From NCBI GenBank assembly GCA_963842945.1, contig CAWJIM010000024.1:160001-224000 (forward strand): a stretch of DNA of 64,000 bases, read 5' to 3'. Every line of letters starts with the position of its first letter. Positions within the stretch are counted from its first letter, which is position 1. Of the stretch, positions 22,879 to 39,083 are shown piece after piece. Position numbers and translations under genes: made by a program. The stretch comes from an uncultured Gemmatimonadales bacterium (GTDB lineage Bacteria; Gemmatimonadota; Gemmatimonadetes; Gemmatimonadales; GWC2-71-9). Below the pieces are notes generated by a model. It ran no database searches. It saw only the letters and a program-made list of their open reading frames with translations, and was not told where the DNA came from.

Positions 22879-23852
22879 CAAGGCTCGCTGATGACTGGGA
22901 CTCCGGTTCGGGCGTGAGCGAGAATCTCTCCGGCCCCCTGCTCCAGCAGCTCGTCGGCCAGTACCGATCCCAGCTCCCGCGCATCCGCCTCACTGGTCAC
23001 CCCACGCCGCTGCCGCCCCTCGATCAGTGTCCTTCCGTCCGGAGCGACGACCCGCCCGTGCAGCTGGAGCACGTCGCCCCGCTCTCCCTGCCGTTCGGCA
23101 TATGCCGCTATGGGGACCTGGCATCCCCCCTCCAGCCGCGATAAGAACGCCCGCTCCGCCGAGATGGTGAGTGCGGTCCCAGCATCGTGCAGCGCGGAGC
23201 GGACCAGCGCGAGAACCGACTCATCGTCCGTCCGCACCGTTATGGCCAGAGCGCCCTGCCCCGGTGCCGGCAACAGCAGGTCGGGAGCGAGCCGCTCGCC
23301 AATCCGATTTTCCGCCCCGAGTCGCACCAGTCCAGCGGTGGCGAGAACGATAGCCGACCACTCCGCAGTGGCCGCGAGCTTGGCGAGACGGGTATCGACG
23401 TTGCCCCGAATATCCACGATCTGCAGATCGGGACGGTGATACAGCAGCTGCGCGCGGCGCCGGAGACTGCTGGTGGCCAGAATCGCGCCTCGAGGCAGGC
23501 CTTCCCAGCTGATGGCGCTCCGGCCGACCAGCGCGTCTCGCGGATCTTCGCGCTGGCCTACAGCTCCGATGACGATGCCGTCCGGCAGCCGGGTGGGGAG
23601 GTCCTTCAGGGAGTGGACTGCGAGGTCGATCCGGCCTGCGAGCAGCGCGTCGTCGATCTGCTTGGTAAACAGCGCCCGGCTTCCGATCCGGGAGAGAGGA
23701 ACGTCGGGCGTGAGGTCGCCCGTGGTCTTGATCTCGACCGGCTCCGCGCTGAATCCAGCCGCTGCCAGCAGCGATCGCACTCGTTCGGTTTGCCAGCGGG
23801 CGAGTGCACTGCCCCGGGTACCGATCCGGAGCGGTCGGTGCGGCAGACTCAA
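22878..23852 (-). CDS. hemC: Hydroxymethylbilane synthase
   Basis: [46 protein letters not shown]. Confidence 0.96.
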
Positions 23853-25255
23853 TGCAGCTCCGCCGTCGACACGCCTCCGGCGACGGGTTCCTTGCTCAGC
23901 ATCGTGTTCAGGCGATCGGCCGCTCTGATTCCCGAGCCGATCGCATCGTTGAGGGAGACACCGTCGCGATAGGTGCCGGCCAAAGCGAGCCCGGGATTGT
24001 TCTGCTCTACCTGGTCTGCGATGTCCTTGAACCGGCCATAGCCGAGGACGTACTGCGGAATGGCCTTGGGCCAGATTTGCACCGCTCGGTATGACGGCTC
24101 GCCCCGAGTGCCTAGAAGCATCCTGAGATCGTCGAGCACCCTGGCGGTGAGAGTCTGGGGATCGGCTTCGACGAAATCGGGATCGCGGGTGCCTCCGGCA
24201 AACACCGTCAGCAACACATGCCCTTCGGGTGCACGCTCCGGGAAAATCGTCGAGGAGAAGATGGCGCCGAGGATGCGGCGGCGCTCGGCCTCGGGCACCA
24301 GGAAGCCAAAGCCATCCAGCGCATGAGTCACCTGCTCGCGGGGGAAGCCCAGCGCCAGCACGGCGAGTGGCGGATGGACGATACTGGAAAGCGTTGACAG
24401 GCGCTCTCCACCGGTGAGATCCAGGTCAATGTCGTCCAGACCATGCGACGGCGCGGCATAGACCACCGCGTCATATGTCTCCGGGCCCTGGTACGCCGCC
24501 CCGACCGTCCATCCCCTGGGTCCACTGCGCAGCTGGGTAACCGGCGCCCGCAGTCGCAGCTCGGACTTGAGCTCGCGGGCAAGGGCGTCGACGATCTCCT
24601 GCAGCCCGCCACGGAAGGAGATCAAGGGGGCCGCGCCGGGTGCAGCGGCGCCGGGAGTCCGGTCGGCCTTGGCCGCCTTGAGAAACGCTTTCATGACTGA
24701 GCCGTGCGTTTGCTCCAGCGTATGGAGCTGGGGGAGCGCATGGCGGACCGACAGCTGCTCCGGATCGCCGGCGAAAGTCCCGGCGACGAACGGGTTCACG
24801 ATGTAATCCAGAACCTCCTGGTTGAACCGGCGGCGCACGAACGCGGCGACGCTCTCATCCAGTGGGGAGTCGCCTCGCTCGATCAGCGGCTCGCCAAATA
24901 CTGCGAGCTTGGCCGTGTTGGAAAGGAGCCGGGAGGTGAGCAGCTCGGCGGGCGTAAGCGGCAGGCGGACCAGCTTGCCCCGGCGAACGATGTACCGGTT
25001 GCGCGCCTCGGGAGAGGGAGAGATCCGCGAGGGATCCAGTCCCAGCTCGCGCAGCATTTCACCGACCGGAGGCGTGGGTGCGGACATCGAGTTGGGCCCC
25101 AGCTCCGCCAGGTAGCCGGCGCGGCGTTCAGTCAGCACCACTCCGCCGGCGCGATCGGCCGCCTCGTACACGACGACGCGATATCCCCGCTGCTTGAGGC
25201 TGTAGGCGGCGGCCAGGCCGGTGAGCCCGGCGCCGACGATCGCTATCGCTGCCAT
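23849..25255 (-). CDS. hemG: Protoporphyrinogen/coproporphyrinogen oxidase (HemY type)
   Basis: [18 protein letters not shown] motif, [21 protein letters not shown]. Confidence 0.88.
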
Positions 25256-26549
25256 GCTGTGCTGAGCGCGGAGTCGAGCAGCTCCAGCTCCCGGTCGCCA
25301 TGAACCACGGAGGTAAACGACGCCTCGAAGGCCGAGGGCGGCAGATAGATCCCGGCCTCGAGCATGGCGTGGAAGAATCGGCTGTACGCCTCGCGGTCGG
25401 TCTGCTTCACCTCGGCGAAGGTCCGCACCGGAGTAGGGCTGAAGAAAGGAGTGAACATGGTGCCGACTCGCTGGACGGTGATCGGAACCCCGGCCCGCTC
25501 GGCAGCGGCCGCGATCAGCGTCGCCGCCCGCTGAGCCCAGTCGGCGGCGCGCTGCCACAGCCCCGGCTGCCGCAGCTCCTCGAGCGTGGCCAGTCCCGCG
25601 GCCATCGCGACGGGATTGCCGGAGAGCGTCCCGGCCTGATACACCGGACCTGCCGGCGCGATCAGCTCCATCAGATCGCGCGCTTCCACCGTAGGCGGCA
25701 GCAGGAAGCCCGCCGCCGATCACCTTGCCGAGACAAGTGAGGTCGGGAGTGACACCATAGAGCACCTGAGCGCCCTGAGGATGGACCCGCCATCCAGTCA
25801 TCACTTCGTCAAAGACCAGCAGCGCATGGTACCGGTGGGTGATGTTCCTCAGACCCTGGAGAAAACCGGCCACCGGCGGCACCACCCCCATGTTCCCGGC
25901 CACCGGCTCCACCAGAACCGCAGCGATCTCATCGCCTCGCACGGAGAAGAGGGTCTCGACCGCGGCCAGATCGTTGTAGGCAACCACCAGCGTATCCGCC
26001 ACCGTTGCCGGCGTCACTCCAGGTGAGTCGGGCAGCCCCAGCGTGGCCACGCCGGAGCCCGCCGCAGCGAGTAGCGCGTCGGCATGGCCGTGATAGCAGC
26101 CGTCGAACTTCAGGATTACCCGCCGACCGGTAGCGGCTCGCGCCAGCCGGACGACGCTCATGACCGCCTCGGTGCCGGAGCTCACGAAGCGGACCATGTC
26201 GAGCCCGGGAAAGCTGGAGACCACCCGTTCGGCGAGTTGAACTTCGAGCTCGGTGGGAGTGCCGAAGGTGGTACCGTGGCGAGCTGTCTCGATCAGCGCG
26301 GCGAGCACTTTGGGATGAGCGTGACCCAGGATCAGTGGTCCCCAGGAGAGGACCAGGTCCACGTATTGGTTCCCGTCAGCATCGATCAGGCAGGGGCCCT
26401 CACCCCGGACCATGAATCGCGGAATGCCGCCCACGCCCTTGAAGGCCCGAACCGGGCTGTTGACTCCTCCGGGGAGCACGCGCTGCGCCGCCGCGAACAA
26501 CCGTTCCGACGCGGCGGTTGCCGCCCGGAGCAATCCGGAGATCGGTCAT
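25243..26549 (-). CDS. hemL: Glutamate-1-semialdehyde 2,1-aminomutase (frameshifted)
   Basis: [54 protein letters not shown]. Confidence 0.94.
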
Positions 26550-27538: not shown

Positions 27539-27895
27539 AAGGGAAGACTAGAGAGCGGAAAGCCGCCTCGCAACCAGCGCGGCGTGCAATTGGTGGATCC
27601 TGGCACGTGCTTTGCCTTCTTTTGCCCCTGAACCTGTTTTCCTGCTTTCACGTTCTTATTGAGGAGGCCTTACACTGGGAAAGAGGTTGGCCACGCACCC
27701 GGCTGCATAGCGGATTCCGACCAAGCTGAACGGGTTAGCACCTCCCGGGCGTAGTGTTCCTGGTCACTGTCCAGGTATCGCCGGAAATCACGGCCAAACG
27801 CATTCTTTCCCCGCATCTTGAAGTGGGTCACGGTGGGTGCCGACCCCCAGCCGGCTGTCATGCCGCGCCGCCCGCCAGCGCCAGGAGCGCACGGT

Positions 27896-29335
27896 ATGCA
27901 GCTATTCCCCTCAGCGGGTTTCTCTGCTCTAACATTGACGCTGGTTTTGAGCGCCTGCGGCGGAAGTCCGCCCCCGCTCCGTGAAGCCCCGGCGCCCGAT
28001 CCCACGGTCGCCATTGTCCGGGCAACCCTGTGGGACGGCACCGGACGCGGCCCAGTCAGCAATGCGGTCACGCTGATCCGCGGCGATCGAATCCTCTGCG
28101 CCGGCTCGGCCGGAGAGTGCCCCGTTCCCCGTCGCGCGCGGATCATCGACGCCCACGGCCAGTGGCTCATCCCCGGCCTGATCGACAGTCACGTCCACCT
28201 GCTTGTTCCTCACGGCCGGCAGCGCCACTGAAGAGCTCTCGCTCGACTTGCGGGACCTTCTGGCCCAGGGCGTCACCACCGTCCGGGACATGGGCACCAA
28301 TCCGGCCGAGCTGCTGGCTCGGGTCACGGACCCTGGATGCTACGCCCCGGGTCTACGCCATGCAGCTGGTGGCGGGTCGGCGGTTCTTCTTCAACGGGTT
28401 CCAGGGTGCTCGAACCGCCCGGGGAGTAGTGTTCCGGCAGCCACCCGCCATGACGATGCAGTCGCTGGGCTGGACGCCCATCATGTACAATCGCACAGAC
28501 GATCCGGATTCTATCGTTGCGGTAGCCCGTGAAGCCGGAGCCATGGGGCTCAAGCTGTACGCCCAGCTGGACCGCGAGTCGGTCACCAAGCTGGTGGCTG
28601 CGGCCCACCGTGCCGGCATGCCGGTGTGGGGGCACGCCTGGGTGCAGCCGACCAGCGCGCTGGAGCAGGCGCTCGCGGGCCAGGACGGAGTGGTGCACGC
28701 GGCCGGCTTTGCCGGTGAGCTGTTTACCGCCGAGGAGCGGGATACTCTGGTCAACGACGGGACGCTACAGGTAGCTACGGCGGAAGTCGCCACCGTGGGC
28801 GCGGTTCACGATCCGCGGATCACCGATGCGCTGGACTCCATGGCTCGGCTCGGCACCTTCTTCGAGCCCACTCTGGACGCCACCAAGCACAGCGTGGCGT
28901 ACTTCAACGCCAAGCGCCGGCACATTCCCTTCGGAGCAGGAGGAATACGTCCGGGCGGCCTCCGGCTTCGGGATGGAGGTCACTCGTGAAGCGGTGCGCC
29001 GCGGGGTCCGGATCAGCGCCGGCAGTGATCACGTCGCCTACGGCCCATCCAACGAGCGGGCGTCGTTGTTCGGAGAGCTGCGCCTGCTGGTGGATTCCAT
29101 ATCCCTGACGCCCACCGCGGCCCTGCTTGCGGCCACCCGCGACGCGGCCCGCGCTATCGGCGGTGAAGCCGCCCAGCGGCTCGGCACCATCGAGGCCGGG
29201 CATTACGCCGATCTGGTGCTCCTCAGCAAGAATCCTTTGGCGGACATCGACAATCTGGATTCGGTCGAATGGATCATGAAGAGCGGACGGATCTGGCGCC
29301 CCGGTCAGCTCAGGAGTGGTATTGCGATGAACTAG
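27896..29335 (+). CDS. Amidohydrolase-family lipoprotein (frameshifted)
   Basis: LVLSAC lipobox, IIDAHGQWLIPGLIDSHVH, GVTTVRDMG, AGSD, LGTIEAGHYADLVLL. Confidence 0.85.
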
Positions 29336-29349
29336 ACGCAGCGGGGTTG

Positions 29350-30255
29350 CTACTGCCCCGCTGCCACTCTGCCCCGCTGCCCCACTTCAACCGGCAGCTC
29401 GACCCGCTCGGCCCACTCCGTCCACGATCCGACATAAATGCGTCACTCGCGGATAGCTCAGCAGATTCCGCAGAGTGAAGTGGACGTGGCTGGCTTCGGT
29501 GGTGCTGTTGCAATACACGATGATGTTGCGGTCGGGGGTGATGCCCTGTTTGGCGTAGGCAGCCTTCAGCTCCGCCGGCGACTTCCAGACGTGCCCAAAC
29601 CCTTCCTGCGTCAGATCGTCCTGCCAGTAGTGGTTGATGGCGCCCGGAATGTGGCCTCGCCGCATCTGGGCTCCGGCCTGTCCAGCATATTGATCCGGCG
29701 GCCGCGCATCAACCAGCGTCGCGCTGCGGTCAATGATCGCCCGCCGCACCTCGTCGAGTGAAGCGCGCTCCGGGCGAAATGTGCCGAGAGGAAAGTTTAC
29801 TGCGACGAATCCTCGGGTACTCTCGGGCGAGAGGTCGCTGTTCCAGCTTCCACTTGAAGTACCCGCCGTTGAGCAGATACACCCGAGGATGCCCGAATCC
29901 CGCCAGCAGCCAGGCCACGAAGGTGGCGTCGATGTTCCGGGTCTCTCCTGCGCTATAGATCACGACCGGCCGGTCGAAGCTCAGACCCAGGCGGGAAAAG
30001 AGCTCGCTGTAGGCTCGCGCGCTCAGGAGCTGCATCGGAATTCCGCCGTCACTGGCCCGCAGACTCTCGGGATTGAGATACACCGCGCCCGGGAGGTGGT
30101 CTTTCAGGTAAATGAACACATCGGTTCGAACGTCGACGATGTTCACCGGCCCTTTCTTCAGCCAGGCAGCCAGCTCCTCGGTAGAGACCAGCTGGGGCGC
30201 GGGCGCCGCGCGTCAACAGGGTCGAGATCAGCAGCAGTACCGAAACCCCGCTCAT
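29350..30255 (-). CDS. Tandem-domain sulfurtransferase (rhodanese), probably exported (frameshifted)
   Basis: MSGVSVLLLISTLL leader; IVDVR...HLPGA...LNGG; LVDARPPDQYAG...RGHIPGA...IVYCNSTTEAS...YVGSWTEW. Confidence 0.85.
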
Positions 30256-31205
30256 GGCACTGAATCCAGTCCCATATAGGCTCGCTCCTCTTCCAGATAC
30301 ACCCGAAGCGCGTTGCGGCGACGCCGAGAGTTCAGCGATACAGGGCGGGTCTGGTCGGCCGGAGGAAGGCTCTTGAAGCGCTCGTCCCATCGGAACTCCA
30401 TGCTCCAGGGCCGAGCGCATCTCGGCGCGAAGCCCGGTAATGTACTTTCTGGTCGTGGCCACCAGCTCGGACGGCTGCCGCGGAATCGCTCCGTGGCCGG
30501 GCACGACCACCCGCGGGTGGAGGCTGTCGATCGCAGCCAGTGCCTTGAGCAGCTCACCGGAATTTCCGTCTACCACCATCGTCACCCCATCTTCGATCAG
30601 CAGATCTCCGGCAAAGAGTACCCGCTCCTGAGGGAGCCACACCATGAGATCTCCAGCGGTGTGGGCGGCCCCGGGATGGCTGATGATGAGAGTGCGTTCT
30701 CCCAGCTGGAGCGTATCCACAGCAGTGACCGGACGATCGGGCGTATCGGCGAACTCAAATCCTCGCATGGCGTCGAGGCCGACCACTCGCACCCAATCCG
30801 CGATCAGCGCGTCCTCGCCCGCTTCGGATGCGAGGACCCGGCGATCGGGATGCGCGATGACTTTGGCGCCGAGCCGGCGGAACACGATCGCCCCGAAATG
30901 ATGGTCCGGGTGGTGGTGGGTCAGGACCAGCCAGGTGATGGGTGCCGGGCGTGACTCGCCGGATCGCGTCCACCAGCTGCTGCCCCTGCTGCGGGCTCGC
31001 CAGCGCGTCGATGACGACAACGCCTTCACTGGTGACCACGAAGCCGGCGTTGGGTCTTCCCTCGGAACCGCGGCCGGTATCCCCGATGGCTGCGTACACG
31101 CCGGGAGCAAGTCGCCGAAGCGATCGGCGTGCGGCGGCTCCAGGGAGGCTCGCGGTCCGATCAGCAGTCCGAGCGAGCAGGAGATATTGGCAGGGAACGG
31201 AAGGC
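30252..31205 (-). CDS. MBL-fold metallohydrolase (SoxH-like), frameshifted
   Basis: NAGFVVTSEGVVVIDA, LTHHHPDHHFG (HxHxDH), AHTAGD, VLFAGDL, VVPGHG; start uncertain. Confidence 0.82.
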
Positions 31206-31206
31206 G

Positions 31207-31548
31207 TCAGGCGGCGATGAAGCTGATGTTGACCGACTGTTTGAAGGAGGCGCCTTTGTTGTCGGACCACACCATGGTAAGCGGTGCTTCCTTGTCTGCC
31301 GTCAGGGTAAAGCTCACCACCGGGTCCCGGCTGATGCCGGAGGTCCACTCGAACCGGGCGACTTCCTGGGTGCCGTAGGTGGCCACTACGTCCTTGATGA
31401 AGTACGCCGGGATTGGATCGCCCTCGGCGGTTCGGAAGAAACCGGTGTCCATCGGATGGGAAACGATCGCATTGACGGTGATCAGATCGCCCCGTCTGAT
31501 CTGATCGGGAACCCGGATCCTGGCTTCGCCGATATCATTGATCATCAT
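31207..31548 (-). CDS. soxZ: SoxZ-like sulfur carrier subunit
   Basis: SHPMDTGFFRTAEGDPIPAYFI, GISRDPVVSF, WSDNKG; ATGA overlap with soxY. Confidence 0.88.
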   Translation of the reverse strand: MMINDIGEARIRVPDQIRRGDLITVNAIVSHPMDTGFFRTAEGDPIPAYFIKDVVATYGTQEVARFEWTSGISRDPVVSFTLTADKEAPLTMVWSDNKGASFKQSVNISFIAA

Positions 31549-32030
31549 CCACATCCGTTAAGAGTGACGAGCACCCGGGCGTACCCGGCCCAAACCTCAC
31601 CGTTACTGGTCTCCAGGATGGCACGCACCCAGGTGGTGCGCTTCATCTTGATGCGGGTAGAGATAGACACCGAGCCAATGGCCGGTGTCAGATGAAACGC
31701 GGCGAGATGCGGGTCGGGGTTGTGATCCACGATGAGGTGGACGCCTTTCACGTACCGATCATCGCTCATCGGCAGGTCGCTCTCGATGATGACCGGAACG
31801 ACCCGGCCATCCTCGGCCACGACAGGCATGTCCAACTGCACGTGTCCCCGGCGGATGGGACGATCCCCGAATAACTGCTTCAGGATACGGGCGACTTCCT
31901 GATTGGGTACTTCGGGGTCTTCGGGCCCGAGATCGAGCCCGGTTGCGGCCAGTAGCCGTTCGGTGCGCGAGGTCAGCAGGCCCGTAAGGGCCAACGCGCA
32001 GGAACGGAAGAAGGCTCGACGCTCACTCAT
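31545..32030 (-). CDS. soxY: SoxY-like sulfur carrier with Tat signal
   Basis: SERRAFF Tat motif, PVVAEDGRVVPV, DHNPDP, STRIKM, C-terminal VTLNGCG. Confidence 0.88.
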   Translation of the reverse strand: MSERRAFFRSCALALTGLLTSRTERLLAATGLDLGPEDPEVPNQEVARILKQLFGDRPIRRGHVQLDMPVVAEDGRVVPVIIESDLPMSDDRYVKGVHLIVDHNPDPHLAAFHLTPAIGSVSISTRIKMKRTTWVRAILETSNGEVWAGYARVLVTLNGCG

Positions 32031-32075: not shown

Positions 32076-32480
32076 CTATGGCTTCAAGTCCAGGCGGTAG
32101 GAGGCCGGATCTCGCGCGACATACGTGGCGCGAGCAGCCACCTGGTTCACGCTGGCCGAGTACTGCGAGGCAAGCCGCTCGTCGGCAATGTGAAGCTGCG
32201 CCACGTTCCCGGAGCTCAGATCGCCGGTCAAGATCACCTGCAGCGTCGTGGCGTCCGGCCGGCTGGTGTAGATGGTGTACCCGGCTGCATCCACCGAGTC
32301 CACCCGTCCGCCCGTGACAGTGAAGAGCAAGCCGCCGTCGTCATTGAACGGAGTGGACAGAGAGACTTGAAGCGTCGCCGCGACCGGACCGGAGGGCTGT
32401 CCCGAACAGCCGCTGAGCATGGCCAGTGCGGCGGCCACCACGACAACCCAGTCCAGAGAGGGTATCGAGGCTCTGTTCAC
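32076..32480 (-). CDS. Hypothetical beta-rich lipoprotein
   Basis: VVVVAAALAMLSGC lipobox followed by ~110 aa of alternating beta-strand pattern; start abuts the end of the M6 protease. Confidence 0.6.
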   Translation of the reverse strand: MNRASIPSLDWVVVVAAALAMLSGCSGQPSGPVAATLQVSLSTPFNDDGGLLFTVTGGRVDSVDAAGYTIYTSRPDATTLQVILTGDLSSGNVAQLHIADERLASQYSASVNQVAARATYVARDPASYRLDLKP

Positions 32481-34699
32481 CGGTTGGTGCTCCCCGCTAT
32501 CTCCACGGACGGTGCCGACGACTGGGGAGCGATCCTCAGCCGCCAGAAAATCTCCCAGGTCGTACACTCCGTTTCGGTTCCCCGCAGCATCGAGAAATGC
32601 CGCCTCCTCCGGCCGCAGGTTCGCCGTGCCGAAGAGCGCGTCGGCGGCTCCGGTCAGCTGGACCTCCTGAACGGCGATGAAGTTCGCGGTGAGGTCGAAG
32701 GGGTGCCGCATGATCAGCGTCAGGGTGTCACTCGCCGCGGTGGTGTCGCCGCTCCAGCCCAGAAACACGGCCCCCGGTTGCGGAGTTCGCCCGGAGTGAC
32801 GCCTGCGAGCCCTCGGCCAGAAATACTCCGGTGCTGATATCTCCCCCGACCGGGGAGGTGATCGCGGCTCCGGTTGCACCCAGTACGCTGGTGCGCAGGC
32901 GATGAGCCGCTGCCACCTGAGCCACTACCGTGTCCGGCTCTTCCCCGATGGTGATGCTGTGGGTCCGCGCCCCTCCGTCACTCCAGGCCAGAAAATCGAA
33001 CTTGGTTCGGCCAGACTCATCGAGCTGGGTGGAGTCGACCGCGAGCTCGACCGTGCTTCCGGAACTGAAGAACTGGTCGATCCGCGACACCGCGGTGCCG
33101 TTGACTCGAATCTGGGCAGGAGGATGATCGGCAGCGAACACCGAGCGGTAAGCGATGTATCGGAACGCCATGCTTCCGCCCGGAGTGACCTGGGCAATAT
33201 GGTCGAGACAGAAGTGAGCGAAGACACCGTGGTTGTCGGTGACCGCGGGTCGGGTCGTGCGGCAGAGCGGATGTGTTCCCGGCCGAGCCGGGATAGCTAT
33301 CGCCGTTGTCTCCCCGATTCCCGCGACCGGCAAGCCCGAGATCGTTGCGGCCGTCGGCCTGCACCAGAGCCACACCATGCGTTGGCCCCGCGTTGACCCG
33401 GTTGTCCTGGTCGAACCCATGCTGGTCGATCTGGCCCTGATCGATATGCCAGACCAGCAATCCGGGCGACTTCTGGCGCAGCCCAAAGGCGGAGTTCATC
33501 TGCGCGGTATCGCTCTCCTGGGCCTGCCGGTTCTCCAGAAGGTAGAACTCATCGGTGCCGGGCACCGGGAAGTACAGGACGGTGTCGGAGCTCGCTACCG
33601 GTCCCAGCACCATGTCCCGGCCGGAAGCCAGCGTATCAACGGCAGACCCAGCCCATCTCGAACAGTGACCAGGCCTCGTACCGCGATGGGCTGTAGGGGC
33701 GAGCATAATTGCCGCTGCCCATCAGCCCCCACTCCCCGATTCCCTGGGTGGCGAGTGAGCTGTTCAGCTCGGTGTCGTACAGATCGGGCAGGCCGAAGGT
33801 GTGCCCGGTCTCGTGGGCTACCGTCCCGATTGGCATGGGTGCCAGCACGTCGCAGGCGGTGGTGCCTCCGAGCGCGCTCTGCATGATGTAGTCGTCAACC
33901 TTGAGAAACTCGCCCGGGTGGCCGGTCCACGGTGTGCGCGTGACATAAGGAGAGCCTCCGTTCCACGCCCGAATGATGAAACGGTGAGCCCAGATATGGG
34001 GAGAGCCGGGACAGGCTCCGTCCTGATCCGCTTGCAGGAAGGTGACGAAATCGACGAAGCCGTCGTCATCACCCGAGTTGGGCTGGCCGTCGGGTCCATC
34101 GTTATCGAACTGGCCCCACATGTTCGCGGTGCCGGTGGGGAGGGACACCTTGTCCAGCGCGCCGATCAGCAGTTCGCCATTCGGCTGACGGCTCGCGACG
34201 GACAGGGCGCGAGCACACCGATCCCGTTGCAGCCATCTTCATAGTACGTGTCCGTCGTGTCCGATATCACCCAGGGAAACACTCGGCCTTCCACGGTGAG
34301 GTTGCCGTTGGAGAGCTGTTCGTAGAAGGACTTGAGGCTGTAGGGACTGCCCGGGCGGAAGGGAGCTGAAGAACAGCTCCTCATACCGACTCGTTGGATA
34401 GGGCGCCGGTACGTTCTTGAAGGCAATCGGAATGACCGGGATGATGATCCGGCCACTGACTCGGGCGGCACCAAAGGCAGATGGGCGCGGCGAGATTCAG
34501 GGCGGCGATGGAGCCGGCGCGAAGCGAGCCGGTGACGGGCCGTACGGACAGCCGTCACCCGCTTCCGCCAGGCGCCATCCCGGCGAAAGTCAAAGCCGCG
34601 AACTTCGAACTGACCTCTCTGAGCACGAGGGAATTGCGCCTGAAGGGGACCCGGGGCGAGCAGCACCATCGCGCACGCCGCCGTCACCCAGCGAGACAC
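32477..34699 (-). CDS. M6-family (immune inhibitor A-like) secreted zinc metalloprotease (multiple frameshifts)
   Basis: Signal ...LQAQ, SLKSFYEQLSNG, FDNDGPDGQPNSGDDDGFVD, AHETGHTFGLPDLYD, WGLMGSG, YLLENRQ, GLLVWHID. Confidence 0.85.
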
Positions 34700-34905
34700 A
34701 CCGAGCAACAAGCTGCACCTGTGGTTGGGACCGGGCAAAAGTAACCTGGTGTACCGCCCGGATCACAGGCGCGCGCCTCCGTTGCGCGGCTGCGAACCGC
34801 CCTGATCGGGGCGGCTTGTGCCGTCCCCCCCGGCAGCACTAGTTTAAGCCTTTCCTGGACATAGTGATGTGGGGATTACTCGACCTCCACTTGTGCCGAG
34901 GTACT

Positions 34906-36113
34906 GTGGATACACAAGAACTTCAGCAGGTCGCGCTATTCGAGAAATGCCGTCAATTCACGAAAGCGCGTGAATTGCAGGCCGTCGGGCTGTATCCGTA
35001 CTTCAATCCGATTTCCGAATCGGAGGACACCGTCGTGGTTATTGACGGTCAGAAGCGGATCATGCTCGGGTCGAACAACTACCTCGGCCTTACCCACCAT
35101 CCCGAAGGTCCTCGAGGCCGCTTCCCGCGCGCTCAGTCGCTACGGCTCAGGGTGCACCGGCAGCCGTTTCCTCAACGGAACTCTCGATCTCCACGAGCAG
35201 CTGGAGGGCGCCCTGGCCGAGTTCTTCGGCAAGGAAGCCTGCCTGGTCTTCTCGACCGGATACTCCGCCAATCTCGGTCTGATCTCCGGACTGGTGGGAC
35301 GGGGTGACGTGGTCTATCTCGACAAGCTGGACCATGCCTCGATCGTGGACGGTGCCAAGCTCTCCTACGGAGAGACCGAGCGATTCAATCACGGCGATCT
35401 GGCCAACCTCGAGCGCCGGATGGAGCGGAACGGCACCGGACGCGGCGCCATGATCATCGTGGACGGCGTGTACTCCATGGAGGGCAACATCGCCGACGTT
35501 CCGGGGCTCTCGCGGATAGCGCGGAAGCATGGTGCCGCGCTGGCGCTGGACGATGCCCACGCGCTCGGCGTGCTCGGCCCCAACGGCGACGGCACCGCGG
35601 CGCACTTCGGGATGACCGAGGACGTGGATATCATCGCGGGGACGTTCTCCAAGTCACTGGCCTCGATCGGCGGCTTCGTCGCCGCCTCGGACAACGTCAT
35701 GCATTATCTCCGCCATCACAGCCGGCCGCTGATCTTCACCGCCTCGCTTCCCCCGGCCAATACCGCCGGTGTGCTGGCCGCCCTCGAGGTGCTCCAGCGG
35801 GAGCCCGAGCGGCGCGATCGGCTGTGGGCCAACACCCGGCGGCTGCAGGACGGGTTCCGGGAGCTCGGCTTCGACATCGGCCCCACCGAAACGCCGATCG
35901 TTCCGGTTCTCATCGGTCCGCTGGAGAGAGACCTTCCTCATGTGGCGCCGGCTGTTTGATGCGGGCGTGTTTACCAATCCGGTCGCGCCTCCCGCAGTAC
36001 CGCCGTCCCAGTGCCGGCTGCGTACCAGTCTCATGGCAACCCACACCTTCGAGCAGATCGACTTTGCCCTGGAGCAGTTCGCGGTGATCGGCAGGGACCT
36101 GGGGGTCATTTGA
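34906..36113 (+). CDS. spt: Alpha-oxoamine synthase, probable serine palmitoyltransferase (frameshifted)
   Basis: [61 protein letters not shown]; followed by GNAT and SDR genes. Confidence 0.78.
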
Positions 36114-37246
36114 CCGATCGCCTTCGCGTCCAAGCGGCGCGCGAAGGGCGGGATCTTCATCACTTCATCGATCTGCCATACCGACTGCACGCGCGGGACC
36201 CTCTCTGGGTCCCGCCTTTGCGTCGGGACGTCGCGACGCTCCTCTCCCGCACCAAGAATCCCTTCTTCGAGCACGCCGAAGCCGAGTACTTCATCGCGCT
36301 GCGGGGTAATGAGGTGGTGGGCCGTATTGCGGCCATCAGTAACCGTCTGCACAACGAGACCCATGGCGACCGGGTGGGCTTCTTCGGCTTCTTCGAGTGC
36401 ATCGATGATCAGGATGTCGCCAACGCACTCCTGAGCACTGCCGCGGACTGGTGCCGCGCAAGAGGCCATGACGTGATTCGAGGGCCTGCGTCGTTCTCGG
36501 TGAACGATGAGTGCGGTCTTCTGGTGGACGGGTTCGAGACCCCGCCTACCCTGATGATGCCCCACAACCCCCGCTATTACATCCGGCTGCTGGAACAGGC
36601 CGGCTTCGCCAAGGCGAAGGACCTGTGGGTATACCAGGGCGGAAGCATGGAGAGCTACGTGCCGGTACCGGAGCGGCTGACCCGGGCCACGGAGCTGATC
36701 CGGCAGCGGCACGGCATTACGCTGCGGCCACTGAACATGAAGGACTTCAAAGGCGAGGTGGAGCGGATCAAGGAGCTGTACAACGCCGCGTGGGAAAAGA
36801 ACTGGGGCTTCGTACCCATGACCGACCACGAGATCGACCACCTCGCCGAGCAGTTCAAGCCGGTGGTGATCCCGGAGCTGGTGCCGATGGCCGAGAAGGA
36901 TGGCAAGCTCATTGGTTTCGGAATCGCGCTTCCCGATCTCAACGTGGTCTTCCGCAACAACCGCTCGGGCCGGCTGTTCCCGATAATCTTTCGGCTGCTC
37001 TGGGCCCTCAAGATGAAGCGGATCCGGCGGGCGCGAATTCTCCTCCTCGGCGTGGCCCCGGCCCATCAGGGCAAGGGAATCGATGCGGTGCTGTACCATT
37101 GGATCTGGACCAAATCAGGAGAGCGGGGGATCTACTGGGGCGAAGCCGGCTGGATCCTGGAAGACAATCCGGCCATGAACGCCGGGTTGGAAAAGATGAC
37201 ATTCAGGGTTTACAAGACGTACCGGCTCTACGACCGCCGGCTATGA
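36110..37246 (+). CDS. GNAT-fold N-acyltransferase, probable bacterial ceramide synthase
   Basis: FIDLPYRLH..DPLWVPPL, VGRIAAI, GFFGFFEC, MMPHNPRYY, YNAAWEKNWGFVP, WILEDN, YKTYRLY; TTGA overlap with spt. Confidence 0.75.
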   Translation: MTDRLRVQAAREGRDLHHFIDLPYRLHARDPLWVPPLRRDVATLLSRTKNPFFEHAEAEYFIALRGNEVVGRIAAISNRLHNETHGDRVGFFGFFECIDDQDVANALLSTAADWCRARGHDVIRGPASFSVNDECGLLVDGFETPPTLMMPHNPRYYIRLLEQAGFAKAKDLWVYQGGSMESYVPVPERLTRATELIRQRHGITLRPLNMKDFKGEVERIKELYNAAWEKNWGFVPMTDHEIDHLAEQFKPVVIPELVPMAEKDGKLIGFGIALPDLNVVFRNNRSGRLFPIIFRLLWALKMKRIRRARILLLGVAPAHQGKGIDAVLYHWIWTKSGERGIYWGEAGWILEDNPAMNAGLEKMTFRVYKTYRLYDRRL

Positions 37247-38205
37247 GAGCGCTGGTTACCGGCGCCACCGGCTTCGTAGGGAGTCATCTGGTGGATGCCC
37301 TGCAGCGGCGTGGGGCAACAGTGACCGCTCTGGCCCGGTCTCCCGAAAAGGCGGCAGCCCTCGCCTCGCAGGGCGTTCGCGTCGCCGCCGGGCACCTCCA
37401 CGATGAGGCCGCCCTGGTTCAAGCCGCACGAGACCAGGATGTGGTGTATCATGTCGCCGGCATCGTGGCGGCCCGGAACGAGGCGGAGTTCCTCCGGGGC
37501 AATCGGGATGGCACCAGGCACATCGTTGCGGCCGCCGAATCGGCCGGGGCTCAGCGCTTCGTCTTCGTCTCGTCGCTGGCCGCGGGCGGCCCCTCGCCCC
37601 GCGGGTTGGCCCTGGACGGGAGCGAGCCTCCTCGGCCGGTGACCGCCTATGGCCGGAGCAAGTTGGCCAGCGAAGAGATTGTCCGATCCAGCCGGCTACA
37701 TTGGTCGATTGTCCGGCCTCCCATGGTCTACGGGCCAAGGGACCGAGAGGTGCTCAAGGTATTCCGCCTGGTGCGATATGGGATCGCTCCACTCTTCGGC
37801 GACGGAAGCCAGGAGCTCTCCGCGGTTCATGCCGCCGATCTTGCCAACGCCCTGGTTCTGGCTGCTGAGGCTCCGAAGGGCCGAACCTACGTGGCCTGCC
37901 ACCCCGAGGTTTTCACCAGCGCGGAGTTTGCTCGCGTGATCGCTCGCACCATGGAGCGATCGGTTACAACGCTGAGAGTCCCCCGGGTACTCGGGCGGGC
38001 GCTTCTCTCCGTTACCGAGGCATCGGCGCGGCTCACCGGCCAAACCACCATCCTGACGGCCGACAAGGCCAATGAGTTCTTTCAGGCGGCGTGGACCGGA
38101 AACCCAACACCGTTGATCAGCGACACTGGTTGGCAGCCGACGTATAACCTTCAGGCCGGCCTGGCCGACACCTACCGCTGGTATCGAAAGGCAGGATGGC
38201 TTTAG
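37243..38205 (+). CDS. Extended SDR/NAD-dependent epimerase family, probable ceramide reductase
   Basis: LVTGATGFVG, HVAG, VSSLAA, YGRSK, RPPMVYGP; ATGA overlap with the GNAT gene. Confidence 0.72.
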   Translation: MRALVTGATGFVGSHLVDALQRRGATVTALARSPEKAAALASQGVRVAAGHLHDEAALVQAARDQDVVYHVAGIVAARNEAEFLRGNRDGTRHIVAAAESAGAQRFVFVSSLAAGGPSPRGLALDGSEPPRPVTAYGRSKLASEEIVRSSRLHWSIVRPPMVYGPRDREVLKVFRLVRYGIAPLFGDGSQELSAVHAADLANALVLAAEAPKGRTYVACHPEVFTSAEFARVIARTMERSVTTLRVPRVLGRALLSVTEASARLTGQTTILTADKANEFFQAAWTGNPTPLISDTGWQPTYNLQAGLADTYRWYRKAGWL

Positions 38206-39083
38206 CTCCACCGATGACTGCAGCCGAGACGGTCCTTTCCCCCACCTCATTGCGAGCCATAGACTGGTTGCTGCTGGCGTACCTGGGGATCGTTTCAGTT
38301 GTCGCCGGTCTTCGCGCATCGACCCAGCCCGAATGCTGGTGGCTCCTGGTGGCGCACGTCCTGTTTGTCGTGTTCCTGGTCTTCCTGACCCGGCCGGGAC
38401 AGGGCGTTGTCGGGAGGAGCTTTCGCGAGTTGTACCCGCTGTTTCTGCTTCCGGCGCTATACAGCGAGCTCGGCATTCTCAACGCTCCTTCAGTTCTGGT
38501 GCATGATCGGCTGGTGCAGCACTGGGAGCTACTGGTCTTCGGAATGCAGGTGAGCCGGGAGTGGTGGCAACGCGCACCCAGCCGCTTCTGGTCAGCTGTG
38601 CTGCACACTGCCTACCTGTCTTACTACGTCATCATCGCTGCTCCGGCTCTGTACTTCGCCTGGAAGGGAGATCTCCCGGCGGTCCGCCGATTCGTGCTGG
38701 TGGTGATGACCACCTTTGTGCTCTGCTATCTGATCTTCATCTTCTTTCCTGTCGCAGGGCCTTACTACATGTTCCCCCGCCCTGCCGCCTGGTTCACCGA
38801 CAATCCACCGGCTCGGCTGGTCTATGACGCCCTGGCCAAGGGGAGCTCCTATGGGGCGGCGTTTCCCTCGTCTCATGTGGCGGCTTCCCTGGCGGCGACA
38901 CTCTCCGCCGGGCGCACCTCACGGAAACTCGGGTGGCTGCTCGCGGTGCCTACGCTGCTGCTGACCGTTGGAGTGGTCTACTGCCAGATGCATTACGGAG
39001 TAGATGCCCTGGCGGGTCTGGTGATGGGCGCCGTTATAACCGGAGCCGTCCTCCATAAAGCAGCGACCCTCCGGTTCCAATGA
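38196..39083 (+). CDS. PAP2-family membrane protein, Aur1/IPC-synthase-like
   Basis: Multi-TM; motifs FFPVAGP, AFPSSHV, HYGVD. Confidence 0.72.
   Translation: MALAPPMTAAETVLSPTSLRAIDWLLLAYLGIVSVVAGLRASTQPECWWLLVAHVLFVVFLVFLTRPGQGVVGRSFRELYPLFLLPALYSELGILNAPSVLVHDRLVQHWELLVFGMQVSREWWQRAPSRFWSAVLHTAYLSYYVIIAAPALYFAWKGDLPAVRRFVLVVMTTFVLCYLIFIFFPVAGPYYMFPRPAAWFTDNPPARLVYDALAKGSSYGAAFPSSHVAASLAATLSAGRTSRKLGWLLAVPTLLLTVGVVYCQMHYGVDALAGLVMGAVITGAVLHKAATLRFQ

Follow-up and report, generated by a model that had tools for sequence, protein, structure and literature searches.

A small set of genes in an uncultured Gemmatimonadales bacterium, encoding a SoxY-SoxZ carrier, a SoxH-like hydrolase of the metallo-β-lactamase (MBL) fold and a rhodanese, is probably linked to methanol oxidation. 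The genes occupy positions 29350-32030, on the minus strand, of a window of 64,000 nucleotides (the whole stretch of DNA analysed; assembly GCA_963842945.1, contig CAWJIM010000024.1, contig positions 160,001-224,000), and all coordinates below are window positions. We tentatively propose that the exported carrier, the hydrolase and an optional rhodanese serve the methanol dehydrogenase XoxF, probably by clearing sulfur adducts from it. Judged by its sequences, the unit is an unfused variant, with a carrier like that of the canonical Sox system, of the catalogued quinoprotein relay (its chemistry is presumed); it falls below the relay cut-offs, lacks the relay's fusion and does not belong to a Sox pathway. 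Throughout, G000 denotes the genome carrying the window (87% complete), other G numbers denote other genomes, L numbers fetched loci and C numbers contigs.

Co-occurrence with lanthanide-type methanol dehydrogenase

Three pyrroloquinoline quinone (PQQ) dehydrogenases of G000 score over the cut-off. All map outside the window, and an earlier note, made from the window sequence alone, was thus correct that the window itself holds none. The XoxF of G000, at C3:149677, has an adjacent Cys pair (CC) and the Asp of a WDYDG motif, and a second Asp in a PQQ dehydrogenase marks the lanthanide-type XoxF. Genes resembling xoxJ and xoxG follow xoxF. Within 26 kb there are also the tetrahydromethanopterin (H4MPT) genes fae, mtd, fhcA and ftr, and C19 carries pqqBCDE.

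The association extends across the phylum. The same draw of 261 phylum genomes was used for every marker, with the unpublished genome G238 included in the tallies. SoxY occurs in 48 of them; setting aside G128 (classic fused type) and G259 (AACLE type) leaves 46 carriers of the unit, whose carrier arm was read directly in 39 and assigned via congeners in 7. XoxF orthologues, counted at ≥73% identity with three more at 57-62% left out, are present in 50 of the 261 genomes. Both the SoxY unit and XoxF occur in 42 genomes, the unit alone in 4, XoxF alone in 8 and neither in 207. XoxF proved to be split at contig ends in the carriers G130 and G244 and in the non-carrier G091, bringing the carriers with XoxF to 44 of 46; split copies were looked for in five genomes, and the 207 may conceal further genomes with XoxF alone. 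XoxF is present in each of the 14 carrier genera, and within family f2 the same 5 of 55 genomes hold both unit and XoxF, the other 50 holding neither. Likewise, fae is present in 45 of 46 carriers and in 57 genomes overall (12 of them non-carriers). PQQ alcohol dehydrogenases in general are far less specific, occurring in 45 of 48 SoxY-positive versus 90 of 213 SoxY-negative genomes. Fisher tests on these 2×2 tables were set aside because related genomes are not independent. The earlier note had described the unit as an orphan, independent of quinoproteins. This description does not hold, given the XoxF, xoxJG, pqqBCDE and H4MPT genes of G000 and the tracking of XoxF and fae by the unit across the phylum.

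Gene order points the same way in some lineages. On single contigs of G173 and G203, soxY lies between fae and xoxF, and in G150 it lies beside pqqBCDE, in all three cases within the same one-carbon (C1) island. C1 genes occur within 6 kb at 11 of 80 further loci. The xoxF gene was counted as adjacent to the unit in L211, L213 and L214 (about 6 kb downstream in L211 and L214) and as not adjacent in G000. A formate dehydrogenase lies directly upstream of the unit in L233. The trees of XoxF and the unit are broadly congruent, except for G150 and G136.

Two further loci deserve mention. In L087 (G150:C12), at the edge of a pqq/C1 island, the unit groups with genus g19 and the host XoxF does not; the unit was possibly re-acquired next to xoxF. 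In L082 (G128:C1:11000-29000), also from Gemmatimonadales, a classic fused SoxYZ gene and two relay-type hydrolase genes stand directly beside a XoxF5-like gene, so that one family contains both relay types.

Genes and conservation of the unit

The unit consists of four closely packed, co-directional genes, with ATGA overlaps at the soxY/soxZ and hydrolase/rhodanese junctions. The arrangement given in the earlier note was re-found in full, and domain searches upheld its gene identities:

31545-32030, minus strand: soxY (PF13501, E 1e-31), with a twin-arginine signal and the tail VTLNGCG*
31548-31568, minus strand: soxY arm VTLNGCG, with one Cys in the C-terminal arm (Cys codon 31551-31553)
31207-31548, minus strand: soxZ (PF08770), a gene of its own with no signal peptide and no Cys, overlapping soxY by ATGA
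30255-31210 (start approximate), minus strand: SoxH-like MBL-fold hydrolase with a Sec-type leader; 7 single-base insertions in the assembly
30901-30918, minus strand: hydrolase metal motif HHHPDH (HxHxDH type)
29350-30258, minus strand: tandem-domain rhodanese (sulfurtransferase; PF00581 twice), predicted to be exported; 3 single-base insertions
29495-29512, minus strand: rhodanese active loop CNSTTE

The SoxY encoded here is the only one in G000. In a first draw, SoxY was found in 33 of 36 congeners versus 0 of 24 genomes of two other families. Twenty of the 33 congener loci were fetched, and all four genes are present and co-directional in every one (20/20), which bears out the neighbourhood conservation that the earlier note had set as a check. 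A scan of a genome collection returned 170 matches, of which 80 loci were kept, about ten being repeats of loci already seen. All 80 belong to Gemmatimonadota, and the public names of the relatives fall in Gemmatimonadales.

Among loci with enough downstream sequence, soxZ comes next in 78 of 78 and the hydrolase in 63 of 64. The rhodanese follows in 28 of 30 loci whose carrier arm ends in NGCG versus 1 of 26 loci with an NGCV arm, the latter being largely kin. Further, a rhodanese orthologue is absent from all five family-f2 genomes tested, which have just paralogues of 29-36% identity. As SoxZ and the hydrolase are near-constant and the rhodanese is often absent, the core of the unit is SoxY-SoxZ-hydrolase, and the rhodanese is optional. 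Its absence beside 25 of 26 NGCV units with room to see it, and from the five f2 genomes, weakens the earlier suggestion that it is the obligatory loader of the carrier. In five loci (L033, L089, L211, L216 and L233), hydrolase and rhodanese form one open reading frame (ORF), which points to a single pathway.

Search for genes of Sox thiosulfate oxidation

In the host genus, no genome has a protein over the cut-off for SoxA (0/50), SoxB (0/80, a tally that includes the unpublished G065) or SoxC (0/50). Among controls, Thermus was positive for SoxA, and one control genome exceeded the cut-offs for SoxB and SoxC. A tblastn search of G000, at its 87% completeness, with true SoxA, SoxX, SoxD, SoxF and YeeE gave no match. 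The highest match in the genus to the SoxB model has 134.5 bits (cut-off 550), and such matches were read as nucleotidase paralogues; the SoxC model yields no more than 232 (cut-off 420). Weak SoxA-model matches in five f2 genomes are TsdA-like.

These counts bear on whether the unit is part of canonical Sox thiosulfate oxidation, with the remaining sox genes elsewhere in the genome. Public annotations encourage that idea by naming the proteins sulfur-oxidizing or thiosulfate carrier SoxY, and SoxZ passes the TIGR04490 model. However, neither the counts for SoxA, SoxB and SoxC nor the tblastn searches for SoxA, X, D and F in G000 revealed the missing partners. The idea, which we regard as exceedingly improbable, is refuted for the genomes searched. 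The whole-genome search proposed in the earlier note thus found no full sox set in G000 or its genus, and the claim that the unit is distinct from thiosulfate oxidation stands.

TsdA was considered as a partner of the unit and rejected. It occurs in 16 of 46 carriers versus 86 of 215 other genomes, and in 0 of 17 genomes of the host genus, and does not follow the distribution of the unit. In Gemmatimonadales at large, a TsdA-like thiosulfate dehydrogenase is nevertheless widespread (102 of 261 genomes, 47 of 55 in f2; L293-L297). In L295 and L296, as read from sequence, its gene has an MBL-fold gene and a gene for a TauE-like membrane protein as neighbours.

The carrier and its relatives

The LNGCG tail is invariant in 20 of 20 congeners, and N-G-C in all 35 sequences compared. 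The canonical SoxY proteins of Thermus (4uwq_B), Allomeiothermus and Sulfurovum also end in GGCG*. The missing last Gly is therefore ordinary, and the only lineage-specific change is Gly to Asn two residues before the Cys. Consequently, of the non-canonical arm claimed in the earlier note, the Asn stands as distinctive and the short tail does not. All 38 SoxY sequences tested carry a twin-arginine motif (RRxF/L), from which export is predicted, and 34 of the 38 have a single Cys in the mature part.

SoxY scores below both carrier cut-offs, with 104.5 bits versus 125 for TIGR04488 and 88.6 versus 140 for the fused-carrier model TIGR04557. SoxZ passes TIGR04490 (SoxZ_true) with 81.1 bits versus a cut-off of 76 (82.6 for that of G025) and reaches 60.3 versus 140 on TIGR04557. 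A quick tree of 152 rows groups the NGC[G/V] proteins into a single clade (Shimodaira-Hasegawa-like approximate likelihood ratio 97) among stand-alone SoxYs ending in GGCG(G), with two sister sequences (support 85) whose relatives sit in genuine soxXYZAB operons. An approximately unbiased test did not reject grouping this clade with the fused carriers (p 0.494). Both SoxY trees came from quick searches of about 126-129 columns, and support for separate placement is 82-85. The NGC[G/V] carrier thus resembles canonical SoxY, and the best trees weakly favour an origin from canonical SoxY, apart from the fused relay carriers. It may have been recruited separately or may be an unfused relative of the relay carriers. 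A fusion of SoxY and SoxZ hidden by a frameshift was ruled out, the soxY stop being kept in 20 of 20 congeners.

Other SoxY arrangements were encountered during the survey. The phylum has a third SoxY type, an AACLE-arm paralogue found in L092 (G259:C175) together with soxZ and next to a cytochrome-like gene. On a plasmid of Methylosinus trichosporium OB3b (L124), soxY-soxZ-soxB accompany two DsrE genes, with no soxAX in the 14 kb fetched and an IS6 element where soxY begins.

The hydrolase and the rhodanese

Intact orthologues of the hydrolase match the relay families best, below the cut-offs (157-163 versus 280 for TIGR04559; 130-141 versus 300 for TIGR04558). Its best annotated plasmid matches are relay hydrolases too, at 33-37%. 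The structural model is a confident MBL fold (predicted local distance difference test, pLDDT, 89.6), and a fold search with it returned generic MBL matches alone (8d2z, template modelling score 0.81). The protein retains HHHPDH, His155, Asp174 and His211, the full HxHxDH metal site, and this site is flanked by the invariant residues Arg24, Arg267 and Arg270. In a tree of 20 rows it forms its own long-branch clade, and SoxH proteins from sox clusters are not separated from relay hydrolases. The window fragment scores 33.7 on GloB against a cut-off of 200.8.

The rhodanese is of the tandem Thermus/SseA type, its closest solved relative being the Thermus rhodanese 1uar (E 2.5e-53), and its model has a pLDDT of 88.1. 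Among 40 motif matches, the active loop reads CNSATE in 21, CNSTTE in 13 and otherwise in 6. C231, in the C-terminal domain, is invariant in 28 of 28 sequences and aligns with the catalytic Cys of 1uar. A tandem fold whose C-terminal domain carries this loop makes the protein a predicted sulfurtransferase. A rough pattern search found a lipobox-like Cys in about half of 31 rhodanese leaders and in none from the closest relative of G000. The rhodanese gave no match to TIGR03865 (PQQ_CXXCW) at E 1e-12, and a search for that family matched 0 of 5 genomes in a run that lacked a working positive control.

Comparison with known systems

The quinoprotein relay (fused carrier TIGR04557, zinc metallohydrolases TIGR04558 and TIGR04559; PP_2666, PP_2677 and PP_2678 in P. 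putida) is catalogued with a hypothetical function. The available passages of PMC12997753 describe PQQ dehydrogenases that have rhodanese, SoxH-like and fused SoxYZ-like genes as neighbours, give M. extorquens META1p1703-1705 as an example, and propose disulfide formation or PQQ protection. The Gemmatimonadales unit shares with this relay an exported Cys carrier, a SoxH-like hydrolase and a protein with a rhodanese domain, as well as the link to a PQQ dehydrogenase that has neighbouring cysteines (XoxF in 42-44 of 46 carriers). Unlike the relay, it has SoxY and SoxZ as separate genes and a single hydrolase, and scores below cut-off on all relay models. Its free C-terminal NGC[G/V] arm contrasts with the internal KASGGCSAP of the fused carriers, its rhodanese is tandem, SseA/TST-like and optional, and the unit is usually far from xoxF.

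The resemblance to canonical SoxYZ (TIGR04488, TIGR04490; PDB 4uwq, 2oxg) lies in the split genes, the twin-arginine SoxY with a signal-less SoxZ, the C-terminal swinging-arm Cys, a tail of GGCG length as in Thermus, and a SoxZ over the family cut-off. It differs in the Asn that replaces Gly two residues before the Cys, in a SoxY below cut-off, and in the lack of SoxA, X, B and C in the genomes searched (SoxX by tblastn in G000 only). The divergent sets SoxYZ-S2 and SoxYZ-S4 from lucinid symbionts and Hyphomicrobium, as described in parts of PMC11237559, likewise combine SoxYZ and soxH beside alcohol, methanol and formate dehydrogenases. Those carriers, however, are fusions found chiefly in sulfur oxidisers that have a complete Sox set, whereas here the carrier is unfused and is the sole SoxY of its genomes. 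The same source locates the fused sets and soxH next to xoxF and fdh and suggests that they shield methanol dehydrogenase from thiosulfate; excerpts of PMC11582611 record the fused set in Hyphomicrobium. Like other tandem rhodaneses (Thermus 1uar, SseA/CysA type), that of the unit has two rhodanese domains with a catalytic Cys in the second alone; unlike them, it is predicted to be exported, carries a CNS[A/T]TE loop and is sometimes fused to the hydrolase.

Passages of PMC5103831 and PMC10875860 report XoxF in Gemmatimonadetes, and those retrieved by our search terms do not mention the unit. The portions of PMC13500833, PMC5934484 and 10.1101/683490 available held nothing decisive for it. In the literature searched (titles and the starts of abstracts, outside supplements and subscription papers), there was no description of an unfused unit in Gemmatimonadota.

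Possible functions

A periplasmic Cys-carrier relay is the best reading of the unit, as far as predicted proteins can tell. In canonical SoxYZ, SoxZ is exported together with the twin-arginine SoxY, and the same may be presumed here. All parts would then be exported, so the client should be periplasmic; XoxF, itself periplasmic, shares the distribution of the unit. Sulfite, thiosulfate or persulfide otherwise liable to attack the vicinal Cys-Cys ring or the PQQ of XoxF could be transferred onto the SoxY arm as an S-sulfonate or persulfide. The hydrolase might then release the arm sulfonate as sulfate, taking the place of SoxB, and the rhodanese, where present, could move sulfane sulfur on or off the arm. 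We favour such scavenging because a sulfurtransferase is co-transcribed with or fused to the unit and the carrier has kept a Sox-like arm; this specific chemistry is offered with clearly more reserve than the link to methanol oxidation.

Several observations weigh against this proposal. G144 (97% complete, 4 contigs) has an intact unit without a XoxF orthologue and with just a distant fae paralogue, and the carrier G062 (93%) also lacks XoxF. Conversely, nine XoxF genomes have no SoxY or hydrolase orthologue, and the unit is therefore dispensable for XoxF. Because the trees of XoxF and the unit are broadly congruent, their co-occurrence may reflect few independent events. In the host genus the unit is far from xoxF, between a lipid gene cluster and hem genes. 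Mutants of the fused type in P. putida show little phenotype without lanthanides, according to a passage of PMC12997753. The rhodanese is missing from most NGCV units, so a sulfur cargo is conjectural and not proven, and the binding and chemistry ascribed to the unit are deduced from its genes.

The same co-occurrence and synteny with XoxF, and the CC pair of all XoxFs examined, would suit a maturation or redox relay, in which the SoxY Cys, as a mixed disulfide or persulfide, builds or repairs the Cys-Cys ring, and its arm is restored by hydrolase and rhodanese. Such a role is suggested for the fused type in part of PMC12997753. We nevertheless consider it unlikely, since PQQ dehydrogenases over the cut-off occur in the 90 SoxY-negative genomes noted above (those examined also having CC), nine genomes have XoxF without the unit, and no thioredoxin gene was seen in the unit. 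Somewhat less likely still is the model of the earlier note, a stand-alone periplasmic system for sulfur detoxification or trafficking, unrelated to C1 metabolism. The carrier does look canonical, with a SoxZ over the true-SoxZ cut-off and sister SoxYs, placed with weak support, that have relatives in soxXYZAB operons; G144 holds the unit without a C1 island; and one Gemmatimonadaceae subgroup has a SfnG-like monooxygenase upstream (242 versus 383). Yet the unit is nearly exclusive to genomes with XoxF and fae, lies inside C1 islands in several lineages and has no association with TsdA. What survives of that interpretation is a conserved unit, a role outside thiosulfate oxidation and a periplasmic Cys-carrier relay; its orphan status, its independence of quinoproteins and the obligatory loading by rhodanese do not.

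In a further alternative, the unit would carry carbon. The arm thiol would take up formaldehyde made by XoxF, which would be oxidised to an S-formyl thioester and cut by a glyoxalase II-like hydrolase. The MBL fold includes thioesterases, the rhodanese is dispensable, a formate dehydrogenase lies directly upstream in L233, and the unit tracks methanol and formaldehyde genes (fae in 45 of 46 carriers), not PQQ dehydrogenases in general. Against these points, a sulfurtransferase is co-transcribed in 28 of 30 NGCG loci, five loci have it as a fusion with the hydrolase, and the window fragment scores weakly on GloB (33.7 versus 200.8); we judge a formyl carrier quite improbable.

We speculate, with more doubt than for sulfur clearance itself, that the unit represents an unfused, minimal quinoprotein relay in soil Gemmatimonadales methylotrophs, with a true-Sox-type carrier, a SoxH-like enzyme replacing SoxB and a plug-in rhodanese. 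It might be a second, independent recruitment of the sulfur-carrier chemistry of Sox, here protecting lanthanide methanol dehydrogenase, or a surviving intermediate form linking SoxYZ to the fused carriers. If so, SoxH-like proteins would be hydrolases of carrier S-sulfonates, and sulfur poisoning of XoxF would be a general selective pressure. As a passage of PMC12997753 indicates, the SoxYZ-like, SoxH-like and rhodanese helpers of PQQ dehydrogenases have stood in catalogues for years with no demonstrated function. The present version is small, with three core proteins, a free C-terminal Cys arm fit for intact-mass spectrometry, and natural variants with, without or fused to the rhodanese, so that both its cargo and the reaction of SoxH can be tested directly. 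Grassland soil proteomes have yielded XoxF proteins of Gemmatimonadetes (reported in part of PMC5103831), and the system therefore belongs to a relevant soil methanol sink. A warning for annotation also follows: of the 120 homologues listed, many bear the label sulfur-oxidizing SoxY in public sets, though the genomes searched lack SoxAB.

Frameshifts in the assembly

The SoxY and SoxZ reading frames are intact, and the hydrolase and rhodanese are read in pieces in the G000 assembly. Over 2,701 columns compared with the closest congener, G011, single-base insertions in the window number 12, of which the hydrolase holds 7, the rhodanese 3 and gene edges 2. The ten frameshifting insertions could mark hydrolase and rhodanese as decaying pseudogenes. 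However, every indel in this stretch is a +1 insertion, and the housekeeping neighbours hemL and an adjacent amidohydrolase are broken by like frameshifts. Further, all ten in-gene insertions are absent from contigs of related strains in public runs; these contigs are not built from G000's own reads, which a search of the runs did not turn up (largest share 0.15). For these reasons the ten insertions look like assembly errors, the genes of relatives being intact, and decay is very unlikely. Frameshifted genes occur throughout the window, for example at 23849-26533 and 27818-29335, and split or fused ORFs of this assembly are to be distrusted. In one rhizosphere RNA run, contigs cover soxY, hydrolase and rhodanese in part; as contigs are no proof of transcription and shares were 0.15 at most, we conclude neither expression nor habitat from them.

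Neighbouring genes

Directly upstream of soxY and co-directional with it, 32076-34738 holds an M6 (immune inhibitor A-like) peptidase gene, which is frameshifted, and, downstream of that gene, a small ORF. Several relatives have ORFs of similar size in this place, and others have none. Beyond it, at about 34864-39083, lies a cluster of an aminotransferase-fold class I/II enzyme (8-amino-7-oxononanoate synthase/serine palmitoyltransferase-like), GNAT, NAD epimerase and PAP2_3 genes, which is conserved as a flank of the sox unit across family f1. We take this cluster to resemble the bacterial ceramide pathway Spt/bCerS/CerR with a head-group transferase.

An IorAB-like molybdoenzyme pair (a 2Fe-2S subunit and a twin-arginine-type subunit of 720 aa) lies just downstream of the unit in three genera (L083, L084, L086 and L089), with no match in G000. 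In one Gemmatimonadaceae subgroup (L251:3106-5153, L279 and kin), the SfnG-like flavin monooxygenase gene (242 versus a cut-off of 383) and a gene of 331 aa are co-directional upstream of NGCV units.

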